From assembly GCA_964229355.1 (NCBI GenBank), contig CAXRDE010000025.1, positions 218,823 through 282,822 on the forward strand: 64,000 nt of DNA, given 5' to 3'. Made by a program: the position numbers and the translations under genes. The DNA comes from Candidatus Sericytochromatia bacterium. Its GTDB lineage: Bacteria > Cyanobacteriota > Sericytochromatia > UBA7694. Positions 516 to 15,806 of the stretch are shown here, piece after piece; the stretch's first letter is position 1; each line of letters begins with the position of its first letter. The notes beneath the pieces were generated by a model. The model was not told where the DNA came from and made no database searches. It saw only the letters and a list, made by a program, of their open reading frames with translations.

Positions 516-546
516 GGGCGTCGCTGACGCCAGTCTGCTCCAGGCA

Positions 547-891: not shown

Positions 892-904
892 GCGCCACAG
901 CGCC

Positions 905-2143
905 TTAGCGCATGGGCAGGGGATGTTCGCCCCGCAGCCCCGGATCGGGCGCGTCAAAGGCCTCGGTCACCAGTTCAAACACCCCATGATCAAAGGGCTG
1001 ACCCGGCGCTGCATGTTTTGGCACCAGCCGCTCGCGCAAGCCCTGTTTTTGTAAGCTTCGGGCCCGAAAATGGCAATAGGGATTATTGCCCGGTTTACCA
1101 AAGAGGGCATGGGCCGTAAAATTGCAGCCCCCCTGACACACCGCCCCAAAGGGGCATTCCCCACAAAAGCCCCACAGCTCCAGCGGCTGACGCCGAAAGG
1201 CCAGGGCATCACTCTCTTGCCAGATCTCCGCGAGGCTTTGCTCTCGCAGCGAACCGCCAATATACGCCGGTTGCAGCGAAGGGCAGCCTTTAACGGCCCC
1301 CTGCGATTCAATGCCCATAACAAATTTACCAGCCTGGCAGCCCTGAAAATGCTCCGCAGGCCGTGAAGCATCAGGCGGCAGCGGCGAGCGCAGCAAGGCC
1401 TCTTCGGGGCCAAAATACCCCAGGTTATTGCCGGGCATAATCAACAGGCCCTCTTGAAAGCCGCGCCGCTTTAAAGCCGCCAGACGGGGCACAAAGTCCA
1501 AAAGATCCCATGGTTGAAAAAGCATCTCGGGTTGGTCCGCTGCCCGCCCCAGGGCTGCGGTGATCTGCACCTGCCAACTGCGCACCCCCTGGGCCTTAAG
1601 ATGTTCATACAGCCCTTCCAGATCGGCCAGGTTCCAGCGGTTAAAGTGGGTATTGGCACTGGCCACCATGCCCGCCGCCTGAATGGCCTGCAGGGCACGG
1701 GTGGTCTGGGCAAAGCTTTGCCGGTGACGGCGAATGTGGTTGTGGGTGGCTTCTAAGCCATCAATGCTAATCGAGACCCGTTGCAGGCCCGCCTCGGCCA
1801 TGGCCTGCGCGCGCCGAGCGTCAATGCCCATGCCCCCGCTGGTCATAACAGGATTAATGCCCGCATCCCGCAGGGCAGATACGAGCGTCAAAAAGCCATC
1901 GTGCAGATAGGCTTCGCCACCAATGAGCACCACCTCACGGGTGCCCAGAGCCGCCAGTTGGGGCACCACCTGCAGGGCTTCGGCGGTGGTGAGTTCCTCC
2001 GGGCGGGGTTTAACCGCCCGCGAGCCACAGTGACGGCAGGCGTGATCGCAACGCAAGGTCAGCTCCCAGACCACATAGGCCGGATGGTAAACGTCCGCCT
2101 GGACGTCGACCCGCCGCCCTTGCAATTGCTCTGCCAGATTCAT
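905..2143 (-). CDS. Radical SAM / SPASM-domain protein (peptide-maturase-like)
   Basis: The CDHACRHC segment carries the CxxxCxxC radical-SAM cluster motif. The C-terminus has a Cys-rich SPASM-like region (CQAGKF...GCPSL...CGECPFGAVCQGGC). The start ATG (2143..2141) abuts the TAA of the upstream ORF (2144..2146). Confidence 0.85.
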   Translation of the reverse strand: MNLAEQLQGRRVDVQADVYHPAYVVWELTLRCDHACRHCGSRAVKPRPEELTTAEALQVVPQLAALGTREVVLIGGEAYLHDGFLTLVSALRDAGINPVMTSGGMGIDARRAQAMAEAGLQRVSISIDGLEATHNHIRRHRQSFAQTTRALQAIQAAGMVASANTHFNRWNLADLEGLYEHLKAQGVRSWQVQITAALGRAADQPEMLFQPWDLLDFVPRLAALKRRGFQEGLLIMPGNNLGYFGPEEALLRSPLPPDASRPAEHFQGCQAGKFVMGIESQGAVKGCPSLQPAYIGGSLREQSLAEIWQESDALAFRRQPLELWGFCGECPFGAVCQGGCNFTAHALFGKPGNNPYCHFRARSLQKQGLRERLVPKHAAPGQPFDHGVFELVTEAFDAPDPGLRGEHPLPMR

Positions 2144-2494
2144 TTAGGAAGCGGTTTCTTCAGTGGTAGCTTCGCTGCTGTCGGCTGAAGGCGCAGGCGA
2201 GGGTGAGATGGGCACACAGGGCGCTTCGGTAGTCTCGCCGTTTTCGGCGGTGGCTTCCTGGGTGGCGGTTTGCGTTTCGCTGGTTTCGGTTTCGTCGCAG
2301 GGGGGCAGGCTATTGGGTGGCGGGGCACCGTAGCAGGCGCTCAGGGTCAGGGCAGCTCCTGCGCCCAGCACCAGTTGACCCACGCGCTTGAGCGGGCGGG
2401 GCAGACCTGTACTCAGTAAGCGGGCGTCGCAGTGGGGACAGCGGGATGCATGGGCAGCGGTCAGGAAGCCTTCACAGTGGGAACATTGTTGCAT
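2144..2494 (-). CDS. Small zinc-ribbon membrane protein with acidic, Cys-containing T/E/S/P-rich C-terminal tail
   Basis: The N-terminus CSHC-x7-H-x3-CPHC is a zinc-ribbon / zf-HC2-like motif (H-x3-C-x2-C). One predicted TM helix follows (VGQLVLGAGAALTLSA). The low-complexity tail has 4 Cys. There is zero-nt spacing to the rSAM gene. Confidence 0.5.
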   Translation of the reverse strand: MQQCSHCEGFLTAAHASRCPHCDARLLSTGLPRPLKRVGQLVLGAGAALTLSACYGAPPPNSLPPCDETETSETQTATQEATAENGETTEAPCVPISPSPAPSADSSEATTEETAS

Positions 2495-2551
2495 GGGGAG
2501 TACCTCTTAAAAAACATTTACTTTTTAGTAATGGTATTATCATACGCGAAA

Positions 2552-2578
2552 GGGCGCAAGTTGTAAAGCCCTGCGCCC
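2552..2578. other. GC-rich hairpin (7-bp stem GGGCGCA/TGCGCCC, 13-nt loop) in divergent intergenic region
   Basis: Read directly from the sequence. There is no downstream T-tract, so it is not a typical intrinsic terminator. It could be an operator or RNA structure between the divergent genes. Confidence 0.3.
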
Positions 2579-2619
2579 CATAACGCTAAAGTCAACGCAA
2601 ACACAAGAGGTGATCCCCG

Positions 2620-3321
2620 ATGGAATTTAGCCCCCAAAACCCTGTGGTCAAATGCTGCCTGCAAGGCAATCCCCAGGCCGCCTGGGAACAGGCCAGCAAC
2701 GACCACGAGAAGTTTATTGCCGCCCATTTTTTGGCCCAGCAGCAGCACGCGCCCGCCCACAAGCTGCCCTGGCTCGAAACCGGTTTGCAACTGGCAAAAG
2801 CCCTGAATGACAATCGGGTACAGAGTGCCCTGCCCAGGCTGTATGACGAGCTGGCCAGCACTTACACCGCCCTGGGAGACACCGACAAAGCGCAGCACTA
2901 CCAGGCCCTGGCCGAGGGCTTTGAGGAGACCGTGGTGGATGCGGGGCCGTTTTTTCATGGCACCAAAGCCGATTTACAGCCCGGCGAAGCCCTGACCCCA
3001 GGGGGGCTCTCGAATTATCAGGCGGATTTGAAGATGAACCACATTTACTTTACGGCCCTGGCCAGCGGTGCCGGATTAGCCGCCGCCATGGCCCAAGGTG
3101 ACGGCCCGGAGCGGGTGTATCTGGTGGAGCCCACCGGCCCCTACGAAAACGATCCCAACGTCACCAACCAAAAGTTTCCGGGCAACCCCACCCGCTCATA
3201 CCGCTCCAGCCTGCCCCTGACGGTGTTGGGCGAAGTGCGCGACTGGCAAAAACAAAGCCCCGAAGAACTTCAGGCCTGGCGTGAGCGGCTGGCGAAGAGC
3301 ACGGGGGAGATTATTAATTAA
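2620..3321 (+). CDS. arr: Arr-family NAD+--rifampin ADP-ribosyltransferase domain protein with a ~100-aa N-terminal helical extension
   Basis: The C-terminal half contains PFFHGTKADL, HIYFTAL and YLVEPTGPYENDPNVTNQKFPGNPTRSYRS. These are near-identical to the hallmark Arr motifs of the mycobacterial enzyme (FYHGTKA / YIVEPTGPFEDDPNLTNKRFPGNPTQSYR). A strong RBS (AAGAGG) precedes the ATG at 2620. Confidence 0.8.
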   Translation: MEFSPQNPVVKCCLQGNPQAAWEQASNDHEKFIAAHFLAQQQHAPAHKLPWLETGLQLAKALNDNRVQSALPRLYDELASTYTALGDTDKAQHYQALAEGFEETVVDAGPFFHGTKADLQPGEALTPGGLSNYQADLKMNHIYFTALASGAGLAAAMAQGDGPERVYLVEPTGPYENDPNVTNQKFPGNPTRSYRSSLPLTVLGEVRDWQKQSPEELQAWRERLAKSTGEIIN

Positions 3322-3340
3322 GGTGGGGTTTTTGTGGGGT

Positions 3341-3397
3341 GTTAAACCCGTCGCTTAAGAGCTTCTTGCTGCGTGTTTGACCTTTACCCCGTTTAAC
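3341..3397. repeat. 57-bp element bounded by perfect 7-bp inverted repeats GTTAAAC ... GTTTAAC, immediately 3' of arr
   Basis: Seen in sequence. It is followed at 3399-3438 by an 8-bp-stem hairpin (GAGCAGTT...AACTGCTC) with a nested AAGCAA/TTGCTT stem. It marks the transition into AT-rich DNA. Confidence 0.35.
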
Positions 3398-3690
3398 GGA
3401 GCAGTTAGTTAAGCAACACATTGCTTTTCAAACTGCTCAGGGCTTACATGGCCCAAAGTTAAGTGTATTCGCTGGCGATTGTAAAATGTTAAATGTGTTA
3501 AAACACATGAAATTAGAAGACAGCCGATCGGCGACAAAACCATTGCTTTAAGTTGCCCCCTCAAACAAACAACCTGAACACAGTGATTAAACTTAAGGAC
3601 GGTAGAAATATATTGTTATGGAACAATTGTCATTTTTTATCGTCACTTAAAAAGTATATAAAACAAGCGTTCTGTTTGAAAGGTCATTTT

Positions 3691-5178
3691 ATGCGTCAAT
3701 ACCTCTTTTTCCCTCTGATATTTAGCGTAGCCTGTCAAAACACAACAGCAGTAACCCCTCCAATCCCACCTCAAGTCTCAGCATCCATGCAACCATCAGC
3801 AAATCCTGCTCCAAGCCCTTCTATCCAGGCCTCTTCACCTCCTCCCATCGAGCCTACCCCAGGCTACTCCATTTCTCCTCCAAGTACCACCCCAGAGCCA
3901 ACACCTGCTCAAACGCCAATGATGATCCCATCCTATCAGCCTCAACCTTCTGTCTGGCCTACCAATATTCAACCTCAGGGCCCTGTTCAGACACCTCTTC
4001 CCCCGGCTCATCCCGATACGCAAAACTGTAGTGTCAGTGTAAATGTGAAGTTTGAAGATTATTCCCATCCCCTTTGGTCTCCGAATAGCCAGTGGCTGAG
4101 TTTTCACAAGGCGAACCATTCATTTTTCTATGACGGAGGGACTTTTTGTGGCGAGGGCGGGGGCTACACTTTAGATAATTTGAGCTTTTTAAACCTGAAT
4201 ACCAATGAGCAAGTGATGTATCAACCGAATGTGCAAAGTATTGAACCTATCGGGTGGATGAACAACAACACCTTTTTCTTTTCACAGCCTAATGAAAATG
4301 GTGGATATTCTTATCTTCACTCTTTTTCACCCGCAAATGAAACCGTTGAAAAAGACTTAAGCTATGCCCTTATTCCAAGGATTCACGCTATCAATCAGGA
4401 TAATCAGCGGATCGCTCTCTGGGGCAGCGATACACCTCAAAAATTAAATTATGCAGTGGTAGAATATGATGCTTCTGAAAATGTACAGTCCCACTGGAAA
4501 AAGTTAAGACCGTTTACTCGAGACAGTGGTCTAGAAGCTTTAAGCTGGGTAAAAGATGAGCTTTTAATTAGCCAACTTAAAGGGACTGACTTCTCAGCAA
4601 AAATCTTTCATATCAATACCCAGGGCGAGTTACAAATGTGGTGGGATCAACCTGTACTGGCTCAACCACAGTCCGTTCTTGCAATGTTTCCCTCTCCCAA
4701 TGGTCAGCATATCGCACTGATCATGCTAAAGAAAACATTGAACAGCAAGCAATCTGGCGTGTATGATCAACAGCATTTGTATTTGGCCGAGCTGAAGCAA
4801 GGGCAAATGCACAATCTACACCGCATCATGGCACTTGAACGGGTAGGCAAAACACTGAGTTGGTCTCCAGACAGCCAATTTCTTGTTTTGTCAGAAGGCA
4901 CAGGAGAGTCCACTGAACCCTTAAATGAAAGCCTATGGATTTTAAAGCGAGAAGATGAAAGCTTAAAATCCTTATTGGCTGCTGAACCCACAAAGTATCC
5001 GGTTTACCACACCATGCCCGCCTGGTCTCCTGACGGAGAGTGGATTGCATTTGTGTCAAATCAAACCTCAGATTTTGAAAAAGACATCCAGCGTCGTCGC
5101 GATATTTTTAGAATACGCCCCAATGGTGCAGACCTGGAGCAGCTTACCCAAAGTGTCTACACGCAAACCACGCGCTAG
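3691..5178 (+). CDS. TolB-like / PD40 beta-propeller lipoprotein with Pro/Ser-rich linker
   Basis: There is a signal peptide with a lipobox (LIFSVAC|Q) and a long P/S/T-rich linker. The protein contains repeated WSPDG(E/S)... motifs (WSPNSQWLSF, WSPDSQFLVLS, WSPDGEWIAFVS). The gene is markedly AT-rich relative to its surroundings. The start was moved to an internal ATG (3691) that has an RBS. Confidence 0.7.
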   Translation: MRQYLFFPLIFSVACQNTTAVTPPIPPQVSASMQPSANPAPSPSIQASSPPPIEPTPGYSISPPSTTPEPTPAQTPMMIPSYQPQPSVWPTNIQPQGPVQTPLPPAHPDTQNCSVSVNVKFEDYSHPLWSPNSQWLSFHKANHSFFYDGGTFCGEGGGYTLDNLSFLNLNTNEQVMYQPNVQSIEPIGWMNNNTFFFSQPNENGGYSYLHSFSPANETVEKDLSYALIPRIHAINQDNQRIALWGSDTPQKLNYAVVEYDASENVQSHWKKLRPFTRDSGLEALSWVKDELLISQLKGTDFSAKIFHINTQGELQMWWDQPVLAQPQSVLAMFPSPNGQHIALIMLKKTLNSKQSGVYDQQHLYLAELKQGQMHNLHRIMALERVGKTLSWSPDSQFLVLSEGTGESTEPLNESLWILKREDESLKSLLAAEPTKYPVYHTMPAWSPDGEWIAFVSNQTSDFEKDIQRRRDIFRIRPNGADLEQLTQSVYTQTTR

Positions 5179-5232
5179 CGTATCACATGCTCCAGAACGT
5201 TTCTAATACACGTTATACACCAACAGAACACG

Positions 5233-5238
5233 TATAAT
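5233..5238 (+). promoter_or_regulatory. Candidate -10 box (TATAAT) with nearby ACACGT direct repeats upstream of hsdM
   Basis: TATAAT lies 37 nt upstream of the hsdM ATG. ACACGT motifs occur at 5209 and 5228. A -35 element is not convincing. Confidence 0.25.
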
Positions 5239-5274
5239 GTATAAAAAACGAATCACGGGGCCTGTTGCAGAACC

Positions 5275-6981
5275 ATGCAGAACATTGAACAAGCATTTTT
5301 AAACGACTTAGAAAAAAAGCTGTGGACCGCCGCCAATAAGTTACTACCGTCACTGGATGCCGCCGTGTACAAGCACGTGGTACTGGGACTGGTGTTTTTA
5401 AAGTATGTGTCCGATGCCTTCGAAGAACGCCAGGAAGAACTCCGGGACATCTTTCAGAATGAAGCCGATGACAATCTCTACGCCCTGTTGCGTGGGGATT
5501 ATGACAGCGACGAAGCCTATCAACAGGCTTTGGCCGAAGAACTGGAGCAGCGCGACTACTACATTGAGAAGAACGTGTTTTGGGTGCCCCAGAACGCCCG
5601 CTGGTCGAGCCTTCAGAAGTATGCCAAGCTGCCTGCCAATACCGAACTCTGGCAAGACGCCCAGGATAACCCCGTTAAAATGCGCTCGGTGGCCTGGCTG
5701 ATTGACACCGCCATGGAGGCCATTGAAAGAGAGAACCCCAAACTCAAAGGCATTCTCAATAAAAACTACACCACCTACCAGATTATTGACAGCAAGCTGG
5801 GCGAATTGATCGACCTGTTTTCAGACGCCCATTTTCACGCCAAAACCTACAAGGGCCAGCCCCTTGAAATGAAGTCCAAAGATATTTTGGGCCATGTGTA
5901 CGAGTACTTTCTGGGTGAGTTTGCCCTGGCCGAGGGCAAAAAGGGCGGCCAGTACTATACGCCCAAGTCGATTGTCAGCCTGATCGTTGAAATGCTCGAA
6001 CCCTACGAAGGCCGCGTGTATGACCCTGCCATGGGTTCCGGGGGCTTTTTTGTCCAAAGCGAAAAGTTTATCGAAAAGCACGCCAAAACCCGTCATTACA
6101 ACGCCGCTGAGCAAAAGAAGCGGATTTCGGTCTATGGTCAGGAGTCCAACCCCACCACCTGGCGACTGGCGGCCATGAATATGGCCATTCGGGGCCTTGA
6201 CTTTAATTTTGGCAGCCGCAACGCCGACACCTTTAACAACGACCAGCACCCCGATTTGCGCGCTGACTTTGTGATGGCCAACCCGCCCTTTAATATGAAG
6301 GAGTGGTGGAGCGAGTCACTGGCCGACGATGTGCGCTGGCAACACGGCACCCCGCCCGCAGGCAACGCCAACTTTGCCTGGCTGATGCATATGCTGCACC
6401 ATCTGGCCCCCACGGGCAGCATGGGCTTACTCCTGGCCAATGGCTCAATGTCGTCGAGTACCTCTGGTGAAGGCGAGATTCGTAAAGCCTTGCTCCAGGC
6501 CGATTTAATTGAATGCATGGTGGCCCTGCCCGGCCAGCTCTTTACCAATACCCAGATTCCGGCCTGTATCTGGTTTTTAACCAAAGACAAGGGGGCTCAC
6601 AAAGGCAAACGGGATCGCAAGGGCGAAGTGCTCTTTATTGACGCCCGCCAATTGGGATATATGAAGGACCGGGTCTTAAGAGACTTTACCGAAGAAGATA
6701 TTCAGCAGGTCTCCGATACCTTTCATGGCTGGCAAAAGGGCGAAGGTTACGCAGACCAGCCCGGCTATTGTTATGCCGCCAAGCTCGATGAGATTGAAAA
6801 ACACGACTTTGTGCTGACCCCAGGACGTTATGTGGGCGCACCTGAGGAAGAAGAGGACGACGAGCCCTTTGCTGAGAAAATGGAACGGCTGACGGCCCAA
6901 TTGGCAGAACAATTTGCCGAGAGTGCGACCTTAGAAGCCGAGATCAAGCAGAATCTGGCGGGGCTGGGGTATAGCTTATGA
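5275..6981 (+). CDS. hsdM: Type I restriction-modification system DNA methyltransferase subunit HsdM
   Basis: It has an N6-adenine methyltransferase motif I (DPAMGSGGFF) and motif IV (MANPPFN). The length and layout are typical of HsdM. Confidence 0.95.
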   Translation: MQNIEQAFLNDLEKKLWTAANKLLPSLDAAVYKHVVLGLVFLKYVSDAFEERQEELRDIFQNEADDNLYALLRGDYDSDEAYQQALAEELEQRDYYIEKNVFWVPQNARWSSLQKYAKLPANTELWQDAQDNPVKMRSVAWLIDTAMEAIERENPKLKGILNKNYTTYQIIDSKLGELIDLFSDAHFHAKTYKGQPLEMKSKDILGHVYEYFLGEFALAEGKKGGQYYTPKSIVSLIVEMLEPYEGRVYDPAMGSGGFFVQSEKFIEKHAKTRHYNAAEQKKRISVYGQESNPTTWRLAAMNMAIRGLDFNFGSRNADTFNNDQHPDLRADFVMANPPFNMKEWWSESLADDVRWQHGTPPAGNANFAWLMHMLHHLAPTGSMGLLLANGSMSSSTSGEGEIRKALLQADLIECMVALPGQLFTNTQIPACIWFLTKDKGAHKGKRDRKGEVLFIDARQLGYMKDRVLRDFTEEDIQQVSDTFHGWQKGEGYADQPGYCYAAKLDEIEKHDFVLTPGRYVGAPEEEEDDEPFAEKMERLTAQLAEQFAESATLEAEIKQNLAGLGYSL

Positions 6982-8345
6982 GCATGCACCCGCTGGCTGC
7001 AGAAATTGCCGCCGGAGAGCATAAGGGCCTTGAATTTAAAACCCAATTGCCGCAAAGGTCGCAAATTGCCAAAACGGTGATTGCTTTTGCCAATACCGGC
7101 GGCGGCAAAATTGTGCTGGGTGTTGACGATCAGCGGCAGATTATTGGACTCAAGGATACAGATATTTTTGAGTTACAAGATCGCATTAGCTCAATCATTG
7201 CTGACAGCTGCTCACCGGCATTACTGCCTGAGCTTTACACCGTCAACTTATCGGGGCAACTGGTGCTGGTGATCGAAGTCTTTAGAGGCTCAGCGCCGCC
7301 TTATTACCTCAAAAAAGAAGGGCCTGAACAAGGCGTTTATGTGCGCCTGGGGGCCACCACCCGCCGCGCCGATCGGGTTCAGATACAAGAACTAGAGCGA
7401 CAGCGTTTAAACCTGAGCTTTGACGAGGAGCCCAGCTTTGAATTTGAGCTGGAGGTATTGGATTTGAGCCCGCTCAACGCACGGTGTGCAGATAAGCAGA
7501 TTGTACTCGATGACGCCGCCTTGCTAAACCTTAAATTGGTGGTCAAAGCCCAGGGCGTGCTGCGCCCCACGCAAGGGCTGGTGCATGTGCTGGGGCTATT
7601 GGACCATACAGAAATCCAATGCGCGCGCTTTAAAGGCACAGATATGTCTTTATTTATTGACCGCAAAACCTATAGCGGCGATCTGTTCTCACAACTGGAA
7701 GCCGCCGAGCAGTTCTTATGGAATCATTTGCCCCTGCGGGGAGAGATCACGGGCTTACAACGTACCGACACGCTAGAAATTCCCCCCGTGGCCCTGCGAG
7801 AAGCATTGGTGAATGCAGTCGTACACCGCGATTACACCCGCCGGGGCAGTAATATTAAAGTGGCGGTGTTTGATGACCGGGTGATGATCCTTTCACCAGG
7901 GGCACTGCTCCATGGCCTGAGCACAGTGGACTTTAAAGCGGGCCGCTCTGAACTGCGTAACCGTACCCTGAGCCGCTTGTTTAAAAAGCTAGGCCTGATT
8001 GAACAGTGGGGCAGCGGCTTTCAGCGGATGAAAGAAGCCTGCGAAAGTCAGGGGTTATTGGCTCCTGAAATTTGCGAAGATGACACGTTCTTTGAAGTGG
8101 TGTTTCGACGGAAAAAAGTATCGGATAGCACCACAAAAGTATCGGAAAAAGAACAGCAAATTTTAATCTTTTTAGCTGCCCAAAAGCAAATTACTTCAGC
8201 ACAGGTTATGGACCTTACCGGCTTAAAAGAAGCCCGCGCTCGCAGAATCTTAAAAGAAATGTGTGAAAAGCATTTATTAGTTCGACAGGGAAAAGGTCGA
8301 AGCACATCGTACAAAATCAATTTAAAAAATGGTCAAAACAAATGA
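6978..8345 (+). CDS. AlbA_2 (Schlafen-like 'divergent AAA') + HATPase_c-like + C-terminal wHTH ATP-binding protein, embedded in the Type I RM operon
   Basis: The N-terminus (EHKGLEFKTQLP...AFANTGGGKIVLGVDD) matches the AlbA_2 domain. The middle region is histidine-kinase-like ATPase fold. The C-terminus is winged-helix. Its ATG overlaps the hsdM stop (ATGA). Confidence 0.75.
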   Translation: MSMHPLAAEIAAGEHKGLEFKTQLPQRSQIAKTVIAFANTGGGKIVLGVDDQRQIIGLKDTDIFELQDRISSIIADSCSPALLPELYTVNLSGQLVLVIEVFRGSAPPYYLKKEGPEQGVYVRLGATTRRADRVQIQELERQRLNLSFDEEPSFEFELEVLDLSPLNARCADKQIVLDDAALLNLKLVVKAQGVLRPTQGLVHVLGLLDHTEIQCARFKGTDMSLFIDRKTYSGDLFSQLEAAEQFLWNHLPLRGEITGLQRTDTLEIPPVALREALVNAVVHRDYTRRGSNIKVAVFDDRVMILSPGALLHGLSTVDFKAGRSELRNRTLSRLFKKLGLIEQWGSGFQRMKEACESQGLLAPEICEDDTFFEVVFRRKKVSDSTTKVSEKEQQILIFLAAQKQITSAQVMDLTGLKEARARRILKEMCEKHLLVRQGKGRSTSYKINLKNGQNK

Positions 8346-9700
8346 ACGATAGTAGAAAGAGCTTTAAACTTGATGAGTTGATAGAAATCAAACATGGATG
8401 GGCTTTCAAAGGATCTTTTATGAATGAAGATATAGACGAAGGTCCAATTGTCGTTGCCATTGGTAACTTCAACTATTCCGGGGGATTTCGGTTTAAATCT
8501 ACACGAATAAAAAGATATACTGCAGATTATCCAAAAGACTATGTGCTGAACCCAGGCGATATTTTATTAGCCATGACTTGTCAAACTGCTGGAGGAGAAA
8601 TTCTCGGTATTCCAGGAGTCGTTCCAAACGATAATGAAGTTTACTTACATAACCAGCGACTCGGTAAACTCGTAATAAAAAAAACTCAAATCATTGACAA
8701 AGAATATCTTTACTGGCTTTTTTTAACTAAAAACTTCAATCACCATTTGTTTGTTTCTGCATCTGGAACAAAAATTTTACATACGTCTCCAACAAAAATT
8801 TGCAATTATAAAGTAACTATTCCCCCAATATTTGAACAAAAAAAAATAGCAAGCATTCTCTGGAACATACAAAAAAAAATCGAACTCAACAACCAAATCA
8901 ACCAAACCCTCGAAGCCATGGCCCAGGCCCTTTTCAAAAGCTGGTTTGTAGACTTTGAACCCGTCAAAGCCAAAATCGAAGCCAAAGCCGCTGGCGCTGA
9001 TGCCAAAGGCGTGACGTTGGCGGCGATGGAAACCATCTCTGGCCAGAATGCCGAAGCCCTGACAAAACTGGCGCAGACAGATCCCGAACGCTATGCAGAG
9101 CTGAAGGACACCGCCGAGTTGTTTCCTGATGCGCTGGTGGAGTCTGAGTTGGGCGAGATTCCGGCTGGATGGGAAGTACACAAAGTCAAAAAGATTTTAC
9201 AACGATTGAAACCAAAGAAAAGATATACGAAGAAGCAAGTACTGAATTATGGTAGAACACCTGTATTAGAGCAAGGCTCAAAAATAGTAATGGGATTTCA
9301 TAACGAATCTCCAGACTTCTATGCGTCTAGTGACGATCCTGTTTTTATATTTGGAGATCACACCTGCGTTACATACTTGTCTTGCCAACCTTTTGATATC
9401 TCACAAAATGTAATTCCATTGAAAGGTGCTAAATTGCCAACCTTATGGGTTTACTACTCTGTGAAAGATTTGCAAAAATTTCAAGAATACCGCCGACATT
9501 GGTCAGAGTTAATTGTCAAAGATGTAGTTACACCCAGTTTAAAACTAACGCAGCTATTCTCAACGAAGATTTCAACTTTCCACAAAATTATTGAAGCCAA
9601 CCTTAAAGAGAATGCAAACCTTGAATTATTGAGAGACATCCTTCTTCCCAAACTCCTGTCGGGTGAAATCAGCATAGAAAATCTGGAGGTCCAATCATGA
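8342..9700 (+). CDS. hsdS: Type I restriction-modification system specificity subunit HsdS
   Basis: It has two AT-rich target-recognition domains flanking a GC-rich conserved central region (LEAMAQALFKSWFVDFEP) and a C-terminal conserved helix (LLPKLLSGEI). Its start overlaps the upstream stop (ATGA). Confidence 0.9.
   Translation: MNDSRKSFKLDELIEIKHGWAFKGSFMNEDIDEGPIVVAIGNFNYSGGFRFKSTRIKRYTADYPKDYVLNPGDILLAMTCQTAGGEILGIPGVVPNDNEVYLHNQRLGKLVIKKTQIIDKEYLYWLFLTKNFNHHLFVSASGTKILHTSPTKICNYKVTIPPIFEQKKIASILWNIQKKIELNNQINQTLEAMAQALFKSWFVDFEPVKAKIEAKAAGADAKGVTLAAMETISGQNAEALTKLAQTDPERYAELKDTAELFPDALVESELGEIPAGWEVHKVKKILQRLKPKKRYTKKQVLNYGRTPVLEQGSKIVMGFHNESPDFYASSDDPVFIFGDHTCVTYLSCQPFDISQNVIPLKGAKLPTLWVYYSVKDLQKFQEYRRHWSELIVKDVVTPSLKLTQLFSTKISTFHKIIEANLKENANLELLRDILLPKLLSGEISIENLEVQS
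8838..8879 (+). repeat. Two A9 homopolymer tracts (8838-8846, 8871-8879) forming a 12-nt direct repeat ACAAAAAAAAAT, at the TRD1/conserved-core junction of hsdS
   Basis: Read directly. The two tracts are 33 nt apart and encode ...EQKKIASILWNIQKKIE... Confidence 0.9.
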
Positions 9701-10605
9701 CCAGCCGAACCCAGATGATACTGACTATTCTCAAAAGCCAGCCCAATACTCCGTTTACAGCCAGAGAACTAGCCCAACAGATATTTATGCAATATGCCGA
9801 AGAGTTACAGGAAAAAAGAAGCAATCCCAAATTTGAATCCGACGAGGACTTTATTATCCAGCTTGCCGCTGAAATCGGAGGCAGCGCCACCAAAACCATT
9901 CAGCGTAACTACCCACAGGTACAAACCCGAGATCAACCCCGCCCCCGACTTTACTACTGGTCAGAAACCGAAAACCTTGATCTGTCAGAGCCAGATATTG
10001 AGTCTGAACCATCTGCTGCTTCCTATAGCGAACATGAACTTTACCCCTTGCTGATCGCTTATCTTTTTGAAGAACAAGGGCTTTACTGCCGACGCATTGA
10101 CGAAAAACGTTCACGCAATGATAAGGGCAATGGGGGCAACCACTGGCTTTACCCGGATATTGTGGCCCTTGAAACCCAGGGCATCCACTGGCAGCCGGTG
10201 GTCAAAAGCTGTTTACAGAATCATTTATCAAGGCTTTGGTCATTTGAGGTCAAACGCAAGCTCAACCGCAGTAATGTGCGTCAGGCTTTCTTTCAAGCGG
10301 TCAGTAATTCATCATGGGCGCATTATGGCTATCTGGTAACGGCAGAAATTAACGAAGACCGCCATAATGGAGTGCTCAAAGAACTTCAAATGCTTTCAGC
10401 CCTGCACGGCATTGGCGTCATGGTCCTTGACACCCACGACTTGGCGGAGTCCAAAGTCTTGCTACCTGCCCGTGACCGCTTGCAAGTGGACTGGGACTCT
10501 GTGAATCGGCTCGTCGAAGAAAATCGAGACATGGAAGATTTTATTGAACTGGTGAGCATGTATCACCAGACGGGTAAAGTACGCAAAGTGGAATGGAATA
10601 AGTAA
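9697..10605 (+). CDS. Winged-helix + PD-(D/E)xK nuclease-fold protein (HrgA/COG2958-like), embedded between hsdS and hsdR
   Basis: The N-terminus is HTH-like (PFTARELAQQIFMQYAEEL). The C-terminus has a candidate PD-(D/E)xK core: YPDIVALE ... SFEVKRK. Its ATG overlaps the hsdS stop. Confidence 0.55.
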   Translation: MTSRTQMILTILKSQPNTPFTARELAQQIFMQYAEELQEKRSNPKFESDEDFIIQLAAEIGGSATKTIQRNYPQVQTRDQPRPRLYYWSETENLDLSEPDIESEPSAASYSEHELYPLLIAYLFEEQGLYCRRIDEKRSRNDKGNGGNHWLYPDIVALETQGIHWQPVVKSCLQNHLSRLWSFEVKRKLNRSNVRQAFFQAVSNSSWAHYGYLVTAEINEDRHNGVLKELQMLSALHGIGVMVLDTHDLAESKVLLPARDRLQVDWDSVNRLVEENRDMEDFIELVSMYHQTGKVRKVEWNK

Positions 10606-11964
10606 GTGCCCGAAGATCAGCACATCGAGTACAAAGCCAGCTGGCGAGACGAATACCTGAAGTGGATTTGTGGCTTTGCCAATGCCCAGGGCGGCACGCT
10701 GATCATTGGCCGGGCCGACAACGGCGAACCCGTGGGCATTGCCAACGCCGCTGAGCTGCTGGAACGGCTGCCCAATCAGGTGCGGGATCTGCTGGGTATT
10801 GTCATCGATATTCAGCGCCTGTACGAAGGTGGCCATGAGCTTTTAAGTATCCACGTGGATCCCTACCCCACCCCCATCAGCTACAAAGGGCAATACCATT
10901 ACCGCAGTGGCAGCACCAAACAAGAACTCAAAGGAGCTGCACTGGACCGCTTCTTGCTGCGCAAACAAGGCCGTCACTGGGACGGTGTGCCCGTACCTTA
11001 CCTCAAGCCCACAGACTTAGATCCCCAGGCCCTGGAACGCTTTCGCCACAAAGCCGAGCGCGCCCAGCGTTTGAGCCAGGCAGACCTGAGTAGCCCCGAT
11101 ACCGCCTTGCTCAAGCGGCTGCACCTTTACGAAAACACCTATCTCAAACGGGCTGCAGCCTTGCTCTTTCACCCAGAGCCCGAAGCCTTCGTTACCGGTG
11201 CGTATATTAAAGTGGGGTATTTTGCCAACGACAGCGATATTCTTTACCATGACGAAATTCATGGCCCACTCATCACCCAGGTGGAGCAAGCACTGGATCT
11301 GATCTGGCTTAAATACCTCAAAGGCTGGATCTCTTATGACGGGCTGCAACGGGTCGAAACCTATCCCGTGCCCCGCAGCGCCCTGCGAGAGGCCCTGCTC
11401 AATGCCGTCATTCACAAAGACTACGGCAGCGGTGCGCCCATTCAAATCCGCGTTTATGACCACAAGCTCACCATCGGCAACGCCTCAGTGCTACCCGAAG
11501 ACTGGCAGGTGGAAAACCTGACCCAGGAACACGAATCGCGCCCCTTTAACCCCGACATTGCCCATGTGTTTTTTCGCGCCGGTGAAATTGAGTCCTGGGG
11601 CCGAGGCATTGAAAAGATTTTGCGGGCCTGTGCTGAGGCGGGCTTTCCCTTGCCCACTTACCAGGACACCGGTGCCACCCTGCGTCTGACCTTTGCCTAT
11701 GCCCCTGAACTGGTGGCCTTAGAAAAAAGCAAAAATGAGGGAATAAATGAGGGAATAAATGAGGGAATAAAATTAACCCCTACAGATCAAGAGATTTTAA
11801 AAGCCCTCAAAGCACAATATAACCTGACGATTAGAGATTTGATAACGCAAACCGGGCGTACCCACAGCACAATCGAGCGCAGCCTCAGCAAGCTGCAAAA
11901 AGCGGGTTGGATTGAACGAGTAGGTTCTCGTAAAACCGGTCACTGGAAGGTACATAAAGCATGA
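10606..11964 (+). CDS. Second AlbA_2 (Schlafen-like) + HATPase_c-like + wHTH ATP-binding protein, paralog of 6978..8345
   Basis: It has an AlbA_2 N-terminus ([39 protein letters not shown]), an ATPase-like middle and a C-terminal HTH. The GTG start follows directly after the upstream TAA. An in-frame 12-nt x3 tandem repeat encodes [12 protein letters not shown]. Confidence 0.75.
11737..11772 (+). repeat. Three tandem copies of a 12-nt unit (GAGGGAATAAAT) inside the second AlbA_2 gene
   Basis: Read directly. It is in-frame and encodes (EGIN)x3. The third unit ends in A instead of T. Confidence 0.9.
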
Positions 11965-14900
11965 ACGAAGACCAACTCGAACAACTCTGCCTGGAATGGT
12001 TCCGTGACATTGGCTGGCAGTTATTACACGGCCCTGACATTGCCCACGATGGCCCCCGACCCCTGCGCCAGGATTATAAAGATGTGTTTCTGCGGCCTGA
12101 ACTGCGTGAGGCCGCTGCCCGCATCAACCCCCATTTGCCCGCCGATGCCCTTGAACAAGCCCTCGACAAAGTCTTCAAGCTTCAGGCGCTCGACCTGCGC
12201 GAGAACAACCGAGCCTTTCACCGCTTTTTACTGGATGGCGTGCCCGTCGAGTACCGTACCGAAGCGGGGCAAAAAGCCGACCGGGTCTTTCTGATTGATT
12301 TTGAGGCCAGCGTCAACAGTTCCACCAATCGCTTTCAGGTGGTGAATCAGTTCACCGTGCAGGGCTCCCGACAGCCCCGCCGCCCGGATATTGTGGTCTT
12401 TATTAACGGGATGCCTTTGGCAGTCATCGAGCTCAAAAGCCCCGCCGATGAACATGCCGACATCTGGCAGGCCTTTAACCAACTGCAAACCTACAAAAAC
12501 GAAATCCCTGAGCTGTTCCATAGCAACGAAGCCCTCGTTATCTCCGATGGCTATAACGCCCGTGTGGGATCATTGACCGCCAACGAAGAGCGCTTTTTGC
12601 CCTGGCGCACCATTCACAACGAAGACGACAAACCGCTGCTCGAATGGCAGCTCGAAACCCTGGTGCGGGGCTTTTTTAAGCGGGATCTTTTCCTCGACTA
12701 TATCCGCTATTTTGTGCTCTTTGAAAGCGATGGCGACACCCTGATCAAAAAGATTGCGGGCTACCACCAGTTTCACGCGGTACGCGAGGCAGTGAGCGCC
12801 ACCATAATTGCAGCACAGGTGCCTGAATTGGGCCAGGTGGTAGAGCGCCGGGCCACTTATGGTAGCGAAGTGACACCCGGCAGCAAAAAAGCCGGTGTGG
12901 TCTGGCATACCCAGGGTTCAGGCAAAAGTATTTCCATGTGTTGTTACGCCGGTAAGCTGCTCCAGCAAAAGGAAATGCACAATCCCACCCTTTTGGTGGT
13001 GACCGACCGCAATGATCTCGACGGCCAGCTTTATGCGACCTTTAGCAATGCCAAAGAGCTGCTCAAGCAAACGCCCGTGCAGGCCGACAACCGCGACGCC
13101 CTGCGTCAGTATTTGGGAGAGCGTCAGTCGGGCGGCATTATTTTTACCACAGTGCAAAAATTTGCGCCTTTAGAAGGCGAAGCGGTCCACCCCATTCTGA
13201 ACCACAGACATAATATTGTGGTGATCTCCGATGAGGCCCACCGCAGTCAGTACGGGCTAAAAGCCCAGCTGAGCGCTGACGGGCAGTACAAGTATGGCTA
13301 TGCCAAACACATGCGCGATGCCTTGCCCAATGCGGCCTTTATTGGCTTTACGGGCACGCCCATTTCCTCTGTAGACAAAGACACCCGTGCGGTATTTGGC
13401 GACTATGTGTCCATCTACGATATTCAAGACGCCGTCGACGACGGGGCCACGGTCCCCATTTATTATGAGTCACGACTGGCAAAACTGGATCTCAACCACG
13501 CTGAAATTGAGAACCTCTCAGAACAGGTGGAAGAAATTGTCGAAGACGAAGAAATCAGCGACCGCGAACGCACCAAAAGCCATTGGAGCCGCCTCGAAAA
13601 ATTAGTGGGCGCGTCCCCTCGGCTTCAGAATGTGGCTTCAGACCTGGTGGCTCACTTTGAACAGCGCACCAGCACCCTTGAGGGCAAAGCCATGATCGTG
13701 GGCATGAGCCGCGAGATTTGCGTTAATCTCTATGATGCCATTGTGGCTTTACGCCCTGACTGGCACGACCTGGACCCTGAAAAGGGCGCGATCAAAATCG
13801 TGATGACGGGCTCGGCTTCAGATCGCGAGCACCTACAGCCCCATATTTACAACCGCGCCACCAAAAAGCGCCTCGAAAAGCGTTTCAAAGATCCCAGCGA
13901 CCCGCTCAAACTGGTCATTGTACGCGATATGTGGCTCACCGGTTTTGACGCGCCCTGTTGCCATACCATGTATATTGACAAGCCCATGAAAGGGCATAAC
14001 CTTATGCAGGCCATTGCCCGCGTTAACCGGGTCTTTAAAGACAAGCCCGGCGGCCTGGTCGTCGACTATATCGGCATTGCGAATGAGCTCAAGCAGGCTC
14101 TAAAAACCTACACAGATGCTAAAGGCAAGGGTGCGCCTGCCCTCAGGGCCGAGGAGGCCTTTGCCATTCTCTTAGAAAAGCTGGATATTATCCGCGCTCT
14201 CTTTCATGGCTTTGACTACAGTGCCTTTGAGACAACGCCCCATCTGCTGCTGGTGCCCGCTGCCAACCATATTTTGGGGCTTAAAGACGGCAAACAGCGC
14301 TTTTTAGACACCGTATTGGCCATGAACAAAGCCTATTCCCTCTGCTCCACCCTCGATGAGGCCAAAGCCCTGCACACAGAACTGGCCTTCTTTTCGGCCA
14401 TTAAAGCCGCCATTAGCAAATTCACCTCAGTGGATGACAAACGCAGTCAGGAAGCCAAAGACTCTGCCCTTAAACAGATTCTCGACAACGCCATTGTGGC
14501 CGATGGCGTGGCAGATGTCTTTGAATTGGCGGGCATTGAAAAGCCCAATATAGGTCTGCTGTCCGATGAGTTTTTAGAAGATGTACGCCGTATGCCCCAG
14601 CGCAATCTGGCGGTAGAACTGCTCGAAAAACTGCTCAAAGACGATATTAAAGCCAAAACCCGCCATAACGTCGTGCAAGAGAAAAAGTACTTTGACCGCC
14701 TCAAAGAAACCCTGCGCAAATACCATAACCGGGGCATCGAAACCGCCCAGGTCATTGAAGAATTGATTCAGATGGCCAAAGCGTTTCAAGAAGCCATGGA
14801 GCGCGAGGCGAACCTGGGCTTGAATCACGATGAAATTGCCTTTTATGATGCCTTAGCCAGCAATGAATCCGCCGTGCGAGAATTGGGTGACGATACCCTA

Positions 14901-15104
14901 AAAAAGATTGCCGTTGAGATCACCGACAAGCTCAGAAAATCCACCACCGTCGATTGGCAAGTGCGCGAAAGCGTGCGGGCTCAATTGCGCATTTTGGTGC
15001 GAAAAACCCTACAGCGCTACAAGTATCCGCCCGACAAAGCGCCAGAAGCCATTGAACTGGTACTTAAGCAGGCTGAAGTCTTAAGCAATGGTTGGTCAAA
15101 ATAA
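11961..15104 (+). CDS. hsdR: Type I restriction enzyme endonuclease/helicase subunit HsdR
   Basis: It has an SF2 helicase Walker A (HTQGSGKSI), a DEAH box ([12 protein letters not shown]), and a length of 1047 aa. Its ATG overlaps the upstream stop (ATGA). Confidence 0.95.
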
Positions 15105-15625
15105 TGGGCCGAAACATTTATATCTATCGTAATCCCTACACCACTTTGTACGATTTTTTACGCGCCCAATACCCTACCATTCGTGAGTGGGCCCTTTCGT
15201 ACAGAAATCCCGCTTGCGGTTACTATCCCGTAGAGGACTTAACGGATTTTTCTTTTACGCTGATTGACAAAATAGGAGCGGAATTGCCCCCACCAGAGCA
15301 GGTGAACCAGTTGAGTCAAGAAGAGCTGGATCATCTTCGCGATCTCACAATGCTTGGCTATGAAGATTATTTATCAATGAAGAAGAAAAACCATTTGTCG
15401 CTTCTCGATGATTTGCCTGGTCTCCAAAGTTCCTATCTTGTAACTCAGTTTATTTGGAATCTCTATTTTCTTGAGGATATTTTGGGCGAAAAACAATATA
15501 GGGTGCATTTGATTTACCGGAATTACACACTCTCTGACACCTCGCCAGGGTCAGAGGAGGTGGGTTACTGGACGTCTGAAGAGTGCGCGCTTTTTAAGCG
15601 CTCTGTTTCAGAGCATTGTGGATGA
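15104..15625 (+). CDS. Hypothetical protein (173 aa), AT-rich, translationally coupled to hsdR (TAATG)
   Basis: Its ATG at 15104 shares an A with the hsdR TAA. There are no recognisable motifs. GC is low. An alternative TTG start lies at 15092. Confidence 0.45.
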   Translation: MGRNIYIYRNPYTTLYDFLRAQYPTIREWALSYRNPACGYYPVEDLTDFSFTLIDKIGAELPPPEQVNQLSQEELDHLRDLTMLGYEDYLSMKKKNHLSLLDDLPGLQSSYLVTQFIWNLYFLEDILGEKQYRVHLIYRNYTLSDTSPGSEEVGYWTSEECALFKRSVSEHCG

Positions 15626-15806
15626 AAACCACAAAGACTATTTTGAAATGGAGCGACGCATGACAGACGACTTTCAAAGAAGAGGAGCTGTGGCTGACGA
15701 TCTAACTGACTTTTTGAACGGCGTCCGCCTTGTCATTCAATGCTTGCTCGATAACCTCAATGCACTTAAAGAAAACGAAGGAATGATCGGTGTATTTTCT
15801 TACTAA
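15618..15806 (+). CDS. Hypothetical small helical protein (62 aa)
   Basis: Its GTG start overlaps the upstream stop (GTGGATGA). It is AT-rich. It could equally be the product of a frameshifted continuation of the upstream ORF. Confidence 0.3.
   Translation: MDENHKDYFEMERRMTDDFQRRGAVADDLTDFLNGVRLVIQCLLDNLNALKENEGMIGVFSY

Follow-up and report, generated by a model that had tools for sequence, protein, structure and literature searches.

Organization of the locus

The window analysed here is a 64,000-nucleotide stretch of a Candidatus Sericytochromatia contig. Between positions 5275 and 15104, six genes lie on the same strand in the order hsdM, g2, hsdS, g4 (hrgA), g5 and hsdR (Table 1). Our ORF check returned exactly the coordinates of the original prediction; the order of the genes, their overlaps and domain architectures, and the candidate nuclease core that it gave were also found to be correct by reading of the junctions, Pfam searches and conservation of the nuclease motif in 14 homologues. 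The seven genes that it counted in this interval are six, since the seventh ORF, which is frameshifted, begins only at 15104. Four of the five junctions are ATGA overlaps (at 6978, 8342, 9697 and 11961), while g4 and g5 abut, with the TAA stop followed directly by GTG (10605/10606).

Table 1. Features of the Type I R-M locus and its flanking gene
Feature	Description	Coordinates	Strand	Remarks
Leader	Region upstream of hsdM; candidate promoter/operator	5179..5274	+	AT-rich, TATAAT
hsdM	Type I methyltransferase subunit	5275..6981	+	568 aa
g2 (SlfA)	Schlafen/AlbA_2 + GHKL ATPase + C-terminal wHTH	6978..8345	+	455 aa; hsdM-hsdS slot
hsdS	Specificity subunit	8342..9700	+	452 aa
g4	HrgA/COG2958-family protein	9697..10605	+	302 aa
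g5 (SlfB)	Schlafen/AlbA_2 + GHKL ATPase + wHTH	10606..11964	+	452 aa; GTG start
hsdR	Restriction/translocase subunit	11961..15104	+	1047 aa
g7	Near-orphan gene	15104..15806	+	ATG overlaps hsdR stop (TAATG)

The sole gap within the unit is the intergenic leader before hsdM. It contains an imperfect inverted repeat (5207-5218 / 5232-5243), which is short and could be due to chance, and a consensus promoter scan listed no promoter in this leader. Inside the operon, neither promoter-like sites (12 versus 10.4±3.5 in shuffled sequence) nor terminator-like sites (20 versus 14.6±3.3) were in excess, counts that are compatible with a single transcript without proving one. Judging from the absence of gaps, the six genes would be read as one transcript from a promoter upstream of hsdM.

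Domains and motifs indicate that the three Type I R-M genes, hsdM, hsdS and hsdR, are intact. HsdM matches N6_Mtase (4.4e-111) and HsdM_N (1.8e-18) in Pfam and MTase_I (3e-187) in PADLOC, and carries an NPPF motif. HsdR contains the HSDR_N, SWI2_SNF2, T1R_D3-like and T1RH-like_C domains (Pfam), scores 626 bits against TIGR00348 (cut-off 285), and has the nuclease residues D143...E157-x-K159 and a DEAH motif. HsdS matches Methylase_S (Pfam, 4.8e-19) and, over residues 5-449, Specificity_I (PADLOC, 1.9e-86). The NCBI call of this gene starts 26 codons downstream, giving 426 aa; because the profile alignments begin at residues 5-6, we favour the start at 8342. The GC content of hsdS is low (0.39, versus 0.48-0.54 in its operon neighbours), and in a comparison with locus L204 the central region alone (8874-9175) is 94% identical, against 44% for the whole protein.

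The accessory genes

g2 and g5 encode proteins of the same architecture, in which the AlbA_2 and HATPase_c_4 domains of the original prediction were confirmed by Pfam. The matches of g2 are SLFN_AlbA_2 (1.8e-25) and HATPase_c_4 (1.3e-24), with sub-threshold wHTH matches; those of g5, which sits directly upstream of hsdR, are HATPase_c_4 (5e-18), AlbA_2 (3e-15) and HTH_24 (2.4e-7). The predicted paralogy of the two holds, though it is distant (23% identity, E 1e-25), and both have kept their nuclease and ATPase motifs: EHKGLEFK of g2 (E14/E19/K21) aligns with the corresponding motif of g5, g2 has the N-box EALVN at residue 275, and E3/E8/K10 and E262/N266 of g5 are invariant in 17 homologues. 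Their C-terminal wHTH resembles MarR, TrmB or Lrs14-type domains. Sources name homologues of these proteins "transcriptional regulator".

The combination of AlbA_2 and GHKL, with or without HTH, is the commonest pSlfn architecture, described as the "Schlatpase" supradomain and reported before from Type I operons (PMC13056530; bioRxiv 10.64898/2026.05.29.728809). The HisKinase-HTH class makes up 34% + 19% of pSlfns (PMC13056530), and 60,692 Schlatpase proteins are known, with an HTH in >90% of C-terminal tails; in Poribacteria Type I operons, a stand-alone Schlatpase gene and another fused to HsdS were noted earlier (bioRxiv 10.64898/2026.05.29.728809). g2 and g5 agree with this class in PF04326 + PF13749, the Ex4(E/D)xK motif, the GHKL E...N residues and the C-terminal HTH; what sets the window apart is that a single Type I operon carries two divergent copies. 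Prokaryotic Schlafens act as tRNases upon activation by phage, and in SLFN-pAgo an ATP-dependent tetramerisation driven by the GHKL domain activates the Schlafen nuclease (PMC13056530; bioRxiv 10.64898/2026.05.29.728809, respectively). The characterised pSlfn and SLFN-pAgo members differ from g2 and g5 in having other sensors (pAgo, an Ig-like domain, DUF262). Tests in E. coli included HisKinase-type pSlfn constructs, and protection came only from DUF262 and Ig-like fusions (PMC13056530), so a defence role of the GHKL-wHTH architecture is putative; this architecture may require a partner.

The product of g4 has an N-terminal winged helix and a C-terminal candidate PD-(D/E)XK nuclease core (D154, E184, K186), whose PDIVALE...FEVKRK sequence is invariant in the 14 homologues. 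It had no match whatever in the Pfam copy used, PF04373 included; homologues with 61% identity carry the names HrgA or COG2958 (NCBI, UniRef). Proteins of the HrgA/DUF511 (PF04373)/COG2958 family are likewise about 300 aa long, were predicted earlier to combine an N-terminal winged helix with a PD-(D/E)XK core (PMC3045609; group 101, PMC3424549), and are physically linked to R-M genes. The family was first described as the hpyIIIR replacement at the HpyIII Type II R-M locus of Helicobacter pylori, whereas g4 is in a Type I context, between hsdS and hsdR. The 2010 paper found no conserved methylase neighbourhood for DUF511, in contrast with the about 60% of g4-like loci (among the best 80 hits) that have hsd genes.

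Downstream of hsdR, g7 is frameshifted at about 15597: frame 0 stops at 15625 and the remainder continues in frame +1 to 15806. Two loci with 98.7-99.2% DNA identity (L210 and L211) keep the gene intact, with 233 aa. Only 9 relatives of g7 were found among 1.84 billion representative proteins, and family searches gave no match.

Recurrence and exchange of the accessory genes

The proportions that follow are rough, as each query contributed its best 80 hits and many of the metagenome contigs are short. When 5 kb or more of sequence was required on each flank, 53 HrgA loci remained; hsd genes occur in 32 of these, and in 14 HrgA is enclosed by hsd genes of its own strand. The commonest immediate neighbours of HrgA are HsdS upstream (13/67) and HsdR downstream (14/68), and 10 of the 16 HrgA operons that belong to the same Type I family as that of the window read M-S-HrgA-R without any Schlafen gene. 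For g5-type genes, hsd genes are present in 28 of the 51 loci with usable flanks and directly adjacent in 18, with hsdM-hsdS-Slf-hsdR with 4-nt overlaps as a recurrent layout. Outside any hsd context we found 23/51 g5-type and 21/53 HrgA loci, including a stand-alone glyS-linked context. A g2 relative with 43% identity is embedded in a BREX-1 operon, between brxC and pglX. Each accessory family embeds alone in Type I operons, the Schlafen family in BREX as well, and either recurs independently in the same slots.

The original prediction had treated the three genes as a unit. The neighbourhood analysis essentially found no conserved co-occurrence: HrgA occurs in none of the 51 g5-type loci with usable flanks, and a Schlafen-type gene in only 6 of the 80 HrgA loci, where it belongs to three subfamilies at differing positions. 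In the nearest g5 relative among the best 80 hits (locus L082), the Slf protein is 86% identical and its gene lies directly upstream of an 88%-identical hsdR, with a DUF3644 gene replacing HrgA after hsdS. In a near-identical strain representing the closest lineage (L205), HrgA (85% identity) and g5 do co-occur, separated by a DUF4268 gene of 1.14 kb whose insertion point, flanked by the stop of HrgA and the start of g5, is exactly the TAA-GTG junction of the window; the GTG start of g5 in the window lies at this cassette scar. Neighbouring cargo is therefore polymorphic for presence or absence at exact gene boundaries. Since cargo embedded in other operons shows identical 4-nt overlaps, tight junctions do not argue against independent insertion, and the claim that the genes are "not independent insertions" is unsupported.

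In two further genomes, L013 and L026, the hsdM-hsdS slot also contains a g2 orthologue (48-51% identity), and both show the arrangement M-SlfA-S-...-HrgA. Two Schlafen genes together with HrgA were seen in the window and L026 only, the latter with a different order and a second Schlafen gene of another subfamily. When operons were sampled through relatives of the HsdR protein, without regard to HrgA or Schlafen cargo, the S-R slot was empty or contained SIR2_2, SIR2_2+Abi_2, Peptidase_M78+Abi_C, Abi_C, DUF4268 or IS elements. In Arcobacter, a Type I operon has five cargo genes, one of them a Schlafen gene. Schlafen genes were present in 6 of 38 HrgA-bearing Type I operons versus 0 of 22 in a small HsdR-conditioned sample (Fisher p = 0.055); from this borderline value, a weak functional affinity between HrgA and Schlafen genes is conceivable.

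Comparison with known systems

PrrC pairs an ABC-type ATPase with an anticodon-nuclease domain of its own, and its gene lies between hsdS and hsdR in the prrABCD/EcoprrI locus. This Type IC-embedded protein, activated when T4 Stp inhibits EcoPrrI, provides a second-line abortive defence (PMC12707154), and PrrC is almost always embedded in Type I R-M (bioRxiv 10.1101/2024.01.29.577857). With PrrC and its relative RloC, the window shares accessory genes within a Type I operon and an NTPase coupled to a tRNA-cleaving nuclease. Nevertheless, there is no homology, the window having a GHKL ATPase with Schlafen/AlbA_2 and wHTH, and Schlafen-GHKL genes, unlike PrrC, often lie outside Type I loci as well. 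For PrrC it has been demonstrated that the R-M complex keeps it latent and that an anti-restriction peptide triggers it; for the cargo of the window both are possible by analogy.

In Vibrio cholerae, the Type I R-M operon of VPI-2 contains TgvAB, a GmrSD-like Type IV system; there, too, extra genes interrupt a functional operon, and TgvAB gives complementary phage defence without need for hsdR restriction activity (PMC11411939). It is the best precedent for embedded genes as independent cargo, although its families are of DUF262/DUF1524 type and it was validated experimentally as a two-gene system.

Type I operons are indeed landing pads for accessory defence genes, as had been proposed: such embedding is common in Type I R-M, BREX and DISARM (bioRxiv 10.1101/2024.01.29.577857), and the "guilt-by-embedding" PDC/HEC candidates of Payne et al. 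(PADLOC) reflect the same phenomenon, with 17,432 non-redundant genes (3,231 families) embedded in these three systems. No PADLOC v2.0 model has any of the three cargo proteins among its members; g2 gave only partial weak matches (PDC-S50, E 2.5e-4, in the AlbA_2 region alone) and HrgA none. Both families have already been described, and the statement that no characterised system has exactly this gene set stands.

Interpretation

One or more of the cargo proteins could be PrrC-like guardians that bind HsdM/S/R, are held latent and fire when a phage anti-restriction protein disables R-M, with tRNA cut by the Schlafen RNase or DNA cut by HrgA. We consider this unlikely, even though g5 and HrgA share the hsdS-hsdR slot with prrC and the Type I linkage of g5-type loci is 35-55% among the best 80 hits. 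It would also fit the pairing, in g2 and g5, of an NTPase with a tRNA-nuclease-type domain (Pfam; PMC13056530), the embedding of a g2-type gene in BREX, another methylation-based system, which is inhibited by Ocr (PMC11317158), and the lack of reported protection by HisKinase-type pSlfns outside their native context (PMC13056530). However, the cargo is unrelated in sequence to PrrC and RloC, both families have many homologues that lie outside any hsd context, and the example of TgvAB shows that an embedded gene need not be a dependent one (PMC11411939).

That g2, HrgA and g5 form one co-evolved sensor/effector triad gated by the R-M complex, as originally proposed, is very improbable. The three genes do share one tightly packed operon, HrgA and a Schlafen-GHKL gene meet in a Type I operon in those 6 of 80 HrgA loci and in L205, SlfA and HrgA recur together in L013 and L026, and the enrichment is borderline; against this stand the absence of HrgA from g5-type loci, the same-family HrgA operons without a Schlafen gene, the mixed subfamilies and positions of co-occurring Schlafen genes, the DUF3644 partner of the nearest g5 relative, the DUF4268 gene that splits HrgA from g5, and the restriction of the full set to the window and a differently built L026. 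We likewise give very little credence to the Schlafen-GHKL-wHTH proteins as transcriptional regulators or controller proteins of the operon, with HrgA as a degenerate or replacement restriction nuclease. The type of their wHTH, the source name of their homologues and the possible operator-like repeat before hsdM would suit such a role, but a plain repressor would not need the Ex4ExK and E...N residues that are invariant in homologues, the proteins have a length of about 450 aa and are present as two divergent copies, the same families embed under unrelated promoters, BREX included, and no replacement nuclease is needed because hsdR is intact.

The reading that we favour as probable is an intact Type I R-M operon whose two internal slots have taken up, through cassette exchange, three accessory genes of two families, g2 in the M-S slot and HrgA and g5 in the S-R slot. 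On this reading, the three genes form a stack particular to the lineage and did not co-evolve as one machine; they are interchangeable members of families already catalogued, and constitute no new three-part system. PrrC-like dependence on the restriction complex, including its physical gating of the cargo, is possible by analogy. As a working model, the cargo would act as additional, individually working anti-phage effectors, co-expressed and co-transferred with the R-M system. An assembled, active Schlafen RNase would cut tRNA and abort the infection, with the wHTH serving as a nucleic-acid sensor or anchor, and HrgA would be a winged-helix-directed DNA nuclease against invaders that escape Type I restriction. 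Given their independent recurrence and swapping, the accessory genes of this operon add a further example to the defence genes that reside inside Type I operons, comparable with PrrC and TgvAB.

Organization of the operon

The six ORFs of the operon lie on one strand at exactly the coordinates of the original prediction, which spoke of seven genes in this interval; this was a miscount, as six are present and the ATG of a seventh ORF, g7, overlaps the hsdR stop codon. Its junctions were likewise found as described, with ATGA at 6978, 8342, 9697 and 11961 and a TAA-GTG abutment at 10605/10606. There are no gaps within the operon, and hsdM is preceded by an AT-rich leader of 96 nt. Promoter-like and terminator-like consensus sites inside the operon were not enriched over shuffled sequence; therefore, a single transcript is plausible, and the same scan neither supports nor excludes sub-operons. 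The leader holds an imperfect inverted repeat (TACACGTTATAC / GTATAATGTATA) that overlaps a TATAAT; this repeat could be a candidate operator for a wHTH protein, and it is short enough to occur by chance.

Coordinates of the operon genes and neighbouring features in the window
Feature	Start	End	Strand	Remark
Arr ORF	2620	3321		rifampin ADP-ribosyltransferase, 233 aa
Low-GC stretch	3000	5200		GC 0.43-0.50
Leader inverted repeat	5207	5243		upstream of hsdM
hsdM	5275	6981	+	
g2 (SlfA)	6978	8345	+	M-S slot, between hsdM and hsdS
g2 linker repeats	~8115	~8150	+	residues ~380-390
hsdS	8342	9700	+	GC 0.39, GC3 0.38
hsdS centre	8874	9175	+	
g4 (HrgA)	9697	10605	+	S-R slot, between hsdS and hsdR
g5 (SlfB)	10606	11964	+	S-R slot
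g5 linker repeats	~11730	~11765	+	residues ~375-386
hsdR	11961	15104	+	
hsdR-g7 overlap	15102	15106		TAATG
g7	15104	15806		
g7 frameshift	~15597			net +1 nt

Judged by profile and motif, hsdM, hsdS and hsdR are all complete. HsdM matched the Pfam families N6_Mtase (371.6 bits) and HsdM_N (67.9 bits) and contains the NPPF motif. HsdS matched Methylase_S (69.6 bits, residues 6-191) and aligned with the full-length PADLOC Specificity_I model (residues 5-449, E 1.9e-86); on these profiles, it was scored as a specificity subunit with two target-recognition domains. HsdR comprises the Pfam domains HSDR_N, SWI2_SNF2, T1R_D3-like and T1RH-like_C, reaches 626 bits against TIGR00348 (cut-off 284.55) and contains the nuclease motif D143...E157xK159 together with DEAH. 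The GC content of hsdS is much lower than that of its operon neighbours (0.48-0.54). The conserved centre of HsdS is 94% identical to that of a near-identical strain, while the whole protein is only 44-47% identical, a pattern typical of target-recognition-domain swapping. The NCBI call for hsdS starts 26 codons downstream (426 aa).

Flanking region

The g7 ORF is intact (233 aa) in two contigs that are 98.7-99.2% identical at the DNA level. In the window, AAGTCTCTG is changed to AAGCGCTCTG, and g7 would be either a pseudogene or the product of an assembly error. Profile searches gave no domain or family match for g7, which is a near-orphan with two relatives in an indexed search and nine in a full HMMER scan of 1.84 billion representative proteins; its AF2 model (pLDDT 48.6) was too poor for a fold search. 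On the other side of the operon, the Arr profile covers only residues ~105-226 of its ORF, which suggests either a true start codon at a more downstream position or an unusual N-terminal extension of the protein. The low-GC stretch contrasts with the ~0.60 GC further upstream, and GC rises again past ~16000. Directly upstream of hsdM, it contains an ORF of 541 aa that starts with TTG and has a PD40 beta-propeller repeat, and it may be part of the same acquired island as the operon. The tRNA and Rfam scans of the window gave no match, and thus no tRNA gene marking an integration site.

The Schlafen genes g2 and g5

The architecture proposed for g2 and g5 was borne out: in both proteins, SLFN_AlbA_2 (PF04326) is followed by HATPase_c_4 (PF13749) and a C-terminal winged helix. 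The two Pfam domains scored 90.2 and 86.5 bits in g2 and 57.1 and 65.3 bits in g5, against gathering scores of 25.3 and 26, respectively. At the C-terminus, g5 matched HTH_24 (30.7 bits, cut-off 21.9), and g2, which had only sub-threshold wHTH matches (DIP2311-like_C, 22.8 vs 27), aligns with the g5 winged helix in this region. As motif matches, both retain the Ex4(E/D)xK residues of the Schlafen nuclease (PMC13056530; g2 E14/E19/K21; g5 E3/E8/K10) and the GHKL E...N residues (g2 E275/N279; g5 E262/N266), the latter corresponding in kind to the Mg/ATP residues E314/N318 of RzAgo (bioRxiv 10.64898/2026.05.29.728809). The g5 residues of both motifs are invariant across 17 homologues, and those of g2 align to them. 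Since g2 and g5 are merely 23% identical and each has closer relatives elsewhere, a recent duplication was ruled out and they are old paralogues. No g2 relatives were found in viral contigs. Short tandem peptide repeats occupy the GHKL-wHTH linker of both proteins; P0122, a 485-aa member of the 90%-identity cluster of g2, has about five copies of SDSTTKV against one in the window, and it seems that the linker changes length through expansion of its repeats.

The AlbA_2-GHKL pair has been named the Schlatpase supradomain and is found in 60,692 proteins, most of which have nothing beyond the pair or else a short HTH at the C-terminus; in Poribacteria, a Schlatpase has been noted in Type I operons, either stand-alone or fused to HsdS (bioRxiv 10.64898/2026.05.29.728809, a 2026 preprint). 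Among prokaryotic Schlafens, the most frequent architecture joins the domain to a histidine-kinase-like ATPase, either followed by an HTH or lacking one (34% + 19% of 5,930 proteins; PMC13056530). When seven constructs, including HisKinase fusions, were tested in E. coli, the DUF262 and Ig-like fusions alone protected (PMC13056530). Transfer RNA cleavage, ATP-driven oligomerisation and phage defence have been reported for RorSlfn5, EcoSlfn7 and RzAgo only (PMC13056530; bioRxiv 10.64898/2026.05.29.728809).

HrgA

Searches of g4 against Pfam, NCBIfam, PADLOC and PHROGs gave no match, even at E up to 10, nor was PF04373 (DUF511) matched at this threshold, its presence in the Pfam copy being unconfirmed; searching PDB sequences with a profile of HrgA returned nothing meaningful. 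The identification of g4 comes solely from homologue names, literature and fold. It is 61% identical over 100% of its length (E ~1e-120) to proteins of Salmonella, Klebsiella and Enterobacter annotated as HrgA protein or COG2958 family protein, names that the sources give to its ~2,700 homologues. Its N-terminal winged helix is followed by a PD-(D/E)XK core in which the three motifs are all present, and the candidate nuclease core put forward for this gene stood, with D154, E184 and K186 invariant in homologues. Mrr has the same general wHTH and PD-(D/E)XK layout; this is a mere resemblance. In Pfam at E up to 10, g4 matched neither Mrr_N/Mrr_cat nor DUF262/DUF1524, the domains of Mrr-type and GmrSD-type Type IV restriction enzymes. 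The fold is consistent with the literature, in which HrgA/DUF511 was predicted in 2010 to combine a winged helix with PD-(D/E)XK, 3dnx being the nearest structure (PMC3045609), and DUF511/PF04373/COG2958 forms group 101 of a PD-(D/E)XK superfamily survey (PMC3424549).

Genomic neighbourhoods of the two families

We annotated the best 80 HrgA loci of reference genomes with iterated HMMs. Flanks of at least 5 kb were present on each side in 53 of them; hsd genes occur in 32 of these 53, and in 14 of the 32 HrgA lies between same-strand hsd genes. Based on Pfam scans of immediate neighbours, the commonest upstream gene is hsdS (13/67) and the commonest downstream gene is hsdR (14/68). Operons in the Type I family of the window (HsdM 61-72% and HsdR 63-73% identical) are usually arranged as hsdM-hsdS-hrgA-hsdR, and 10 of 16 such HrgA operons are without any Schlafen gene. 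One HrgA locus has a DpnII-type neighbour, which recalls the H. pylori locus. A second conserved context of the HrgA family is outside R-M: in Acinetobacter and other Moraxellaceae, homologues stand alone directly downstream of glyS, which encodes the beta subunit of glycyl-tRNA synthetase, and have no hsd gene nearby (loci L041, L045, L048, L051, L059, L063 and L071).

For g5-type Schlafens, the best 80 metagenome loci were sampled, 51 of them with a flank of 3 kb or more on one side. There are hsd genes in 28 of the 51, directly adjacent in 18 of these, and hsdM-hsdS-Slf-hsdR with 4-nt overlaps is a recurrent layout (Slf, Schlafen-GHKL gene). Orthologues of g2 occupy the M-S slot of L013 and L026, and a 43%-identical relative lies between brxC and pglX in a BREX-1 operon. 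Heavily stacked Type I operons occur elsewhere too: the Arcobacter plasmid L203 (CP146529, 1-12067) has hsdM-RhuM-hsdS-hyp-SLATT-DUF87-Slf-hsdR-SprT, and the Pseudomonas MAG L026 (3132-11915) has hsdM-Slf-hsdS-Slf(673 aa)-HrgA-Abi_2. A Fic-HTH gene follows the Schlafen gene in L069.

Schlafen-GHKL genes of three subfamilies occur in 6 of the 80 HrgA loci, before HrgA, after it or one gene off. Weak Slf-like phmmer matches in these loci were retained after Pfam identified genuine AlbA_2 and HATPase_c_4 domains, which ruled out spurious hits. For a base rate of Schlafen and HrgA embedding independent of the Type I family, the one unconditioned sample comprised 34 prophage or viral contigs, 22 with a visible junction. 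Schlafen genes in HrgA Type I operons were not significantly enriched over the small and biased HsdR-conditioned sample (0/22; Fisher p = 0.055), nor when this underpowered, biased comparison was limited to the same Type I family (p = 0.21). Among relatives of HsdR, which were sampled without regard to either cargo, about half have an empty S-R slot, and the others carry SIR2_2, SIR2_2+Abi_2, Peptidase_M78+Abi_C, Abi_C, DUF4268 or IS elements.

Cargo exchange at the HrgA-g5 junction

The neighbourhood analysis argues against the conserved triad of g2, g4 and g5 that had been proposed: HrgA is present in none of the 51 g5-type loci, and the closest relatives settle the matter. In L082, whose g5 and hsdR are 86% and 88% identical to those of the window, a DUF3644 gene stands at the place of HrgA. 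In L204-L206, an 85%-identical HrgA is followed by a DUF4268 gene; in the near-identical strain L205, this 1.14-kb gene (1796-2939) sits precisely at the boundary of HrgA and g5, after the stop of the one and before the start of the other; it is absent at 10605/10606 of the window. The ORF after it matches g5 without a difference over 99 nt, beginning at codon 3. The junction reads ...TAA-ATG-DUF4268-TGA-AT-ATGAACCGC-GAAGATCAG in the relative and ...TAA-GTGCCC-GAAGATCAG in the window, g5 thus starting with ATGAACCGC in the former and with GTGCCC in the latter. Therefore, the abutment and the GTG start of g5 mark the point of insertion or deletion of a cassette, and they lend no support to the idea of an indivisible unit. 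HrgA is directly followed by DUF4268 in L207 as well, and L169 and L185 have hsdS-DUF4268-hsdR.

Discussion

At this locus, defence cargo is embedded in a Type I operon, and both cargo families are already catalogued. The observation behind the original prediction is confirmed, and its interpretation is supported in part: the embedding and the domain assignments stand, and the triad as one unit is not supported. We favour, as the probable reading, a working Type I system whose second-line effectors were acquired independently, form a stack specific to this lineage and are expressed from the hsdM promoter. If they act like the Schlafens characterised so far, g2 and g5 would be tRNases that are gated by ATP and cause abortive infection; HrgA is a putative winged-helix-directed DNA nuclease. 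An integrated triad of g2, HrgA and g5 is very unlikely, and a purely regulatory role for the cargo also seems highly improbable.

PrrC and RloC join an ABC-type ATPase N-domain to the PrrC anticodon-nuclease C-domain. In Pfam, NCBIfam and PADLOC, g2, g4 and g5 matched no PrrC/RloC-named or ABC-ATPase family, and the embedded operon position is all that this cargo has in common with PrrC. None of the three matched a PADLOC PDC/HEC model over its full length; g2 had a partial match to PDC-S50 (E 2.5e-4, residues 28-144 only) besides HTH-only matches, g5 had HTH-only matches and g4 had none. PrrC and TgvAB are worked examples of embedded genes (PMC12707154, PMC11411939), and a systematic survey of Type I, BREX and DISARM operons lists 17,432 embedded genes in 3,231 families (bioRxiv 10.1101/2024.01.29.577857). 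A PrrC-like dependence of the cargo on the R-M complex is unlikely here, and it is doubtful that stand-alone Schlafen-GHKL-wHTH proteins, possibly HrgA too, are R-M guardians in the PrrC sense. As such guardians, they would bind to the methyltransferase/restriction complexes of Type I (and BREX) systems and stay silent while the complex works; a phage inhibitor, e.g., a DNA mimic, that disables the complex would then trigger tRNA or DNA cleavage. Of the readings still open, this one is nevertheless the most interesting, since it would account for the negative outcome with HisKinase-type Schlafens assayed alone or outside their native context. If true, the commonest prokaryotic Schlafen architecture would form a very large family of abortive-infection effectors gated by restriction.

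Returning to the favoured stack of independent effectors, the locus adds another case of accessory defence genes inside a Type I R-M operon, and the useful part is the comparative result. Overlapping start and stop codons are no proof that genes form one functional module. Two large families, Schlafen-GHKL-wHTH and HrgA/COG2958, recur in Type I operons, each at a slot that it prefers, and the cargo of these slots turns over at exact gene boundaries between near-identical strains.
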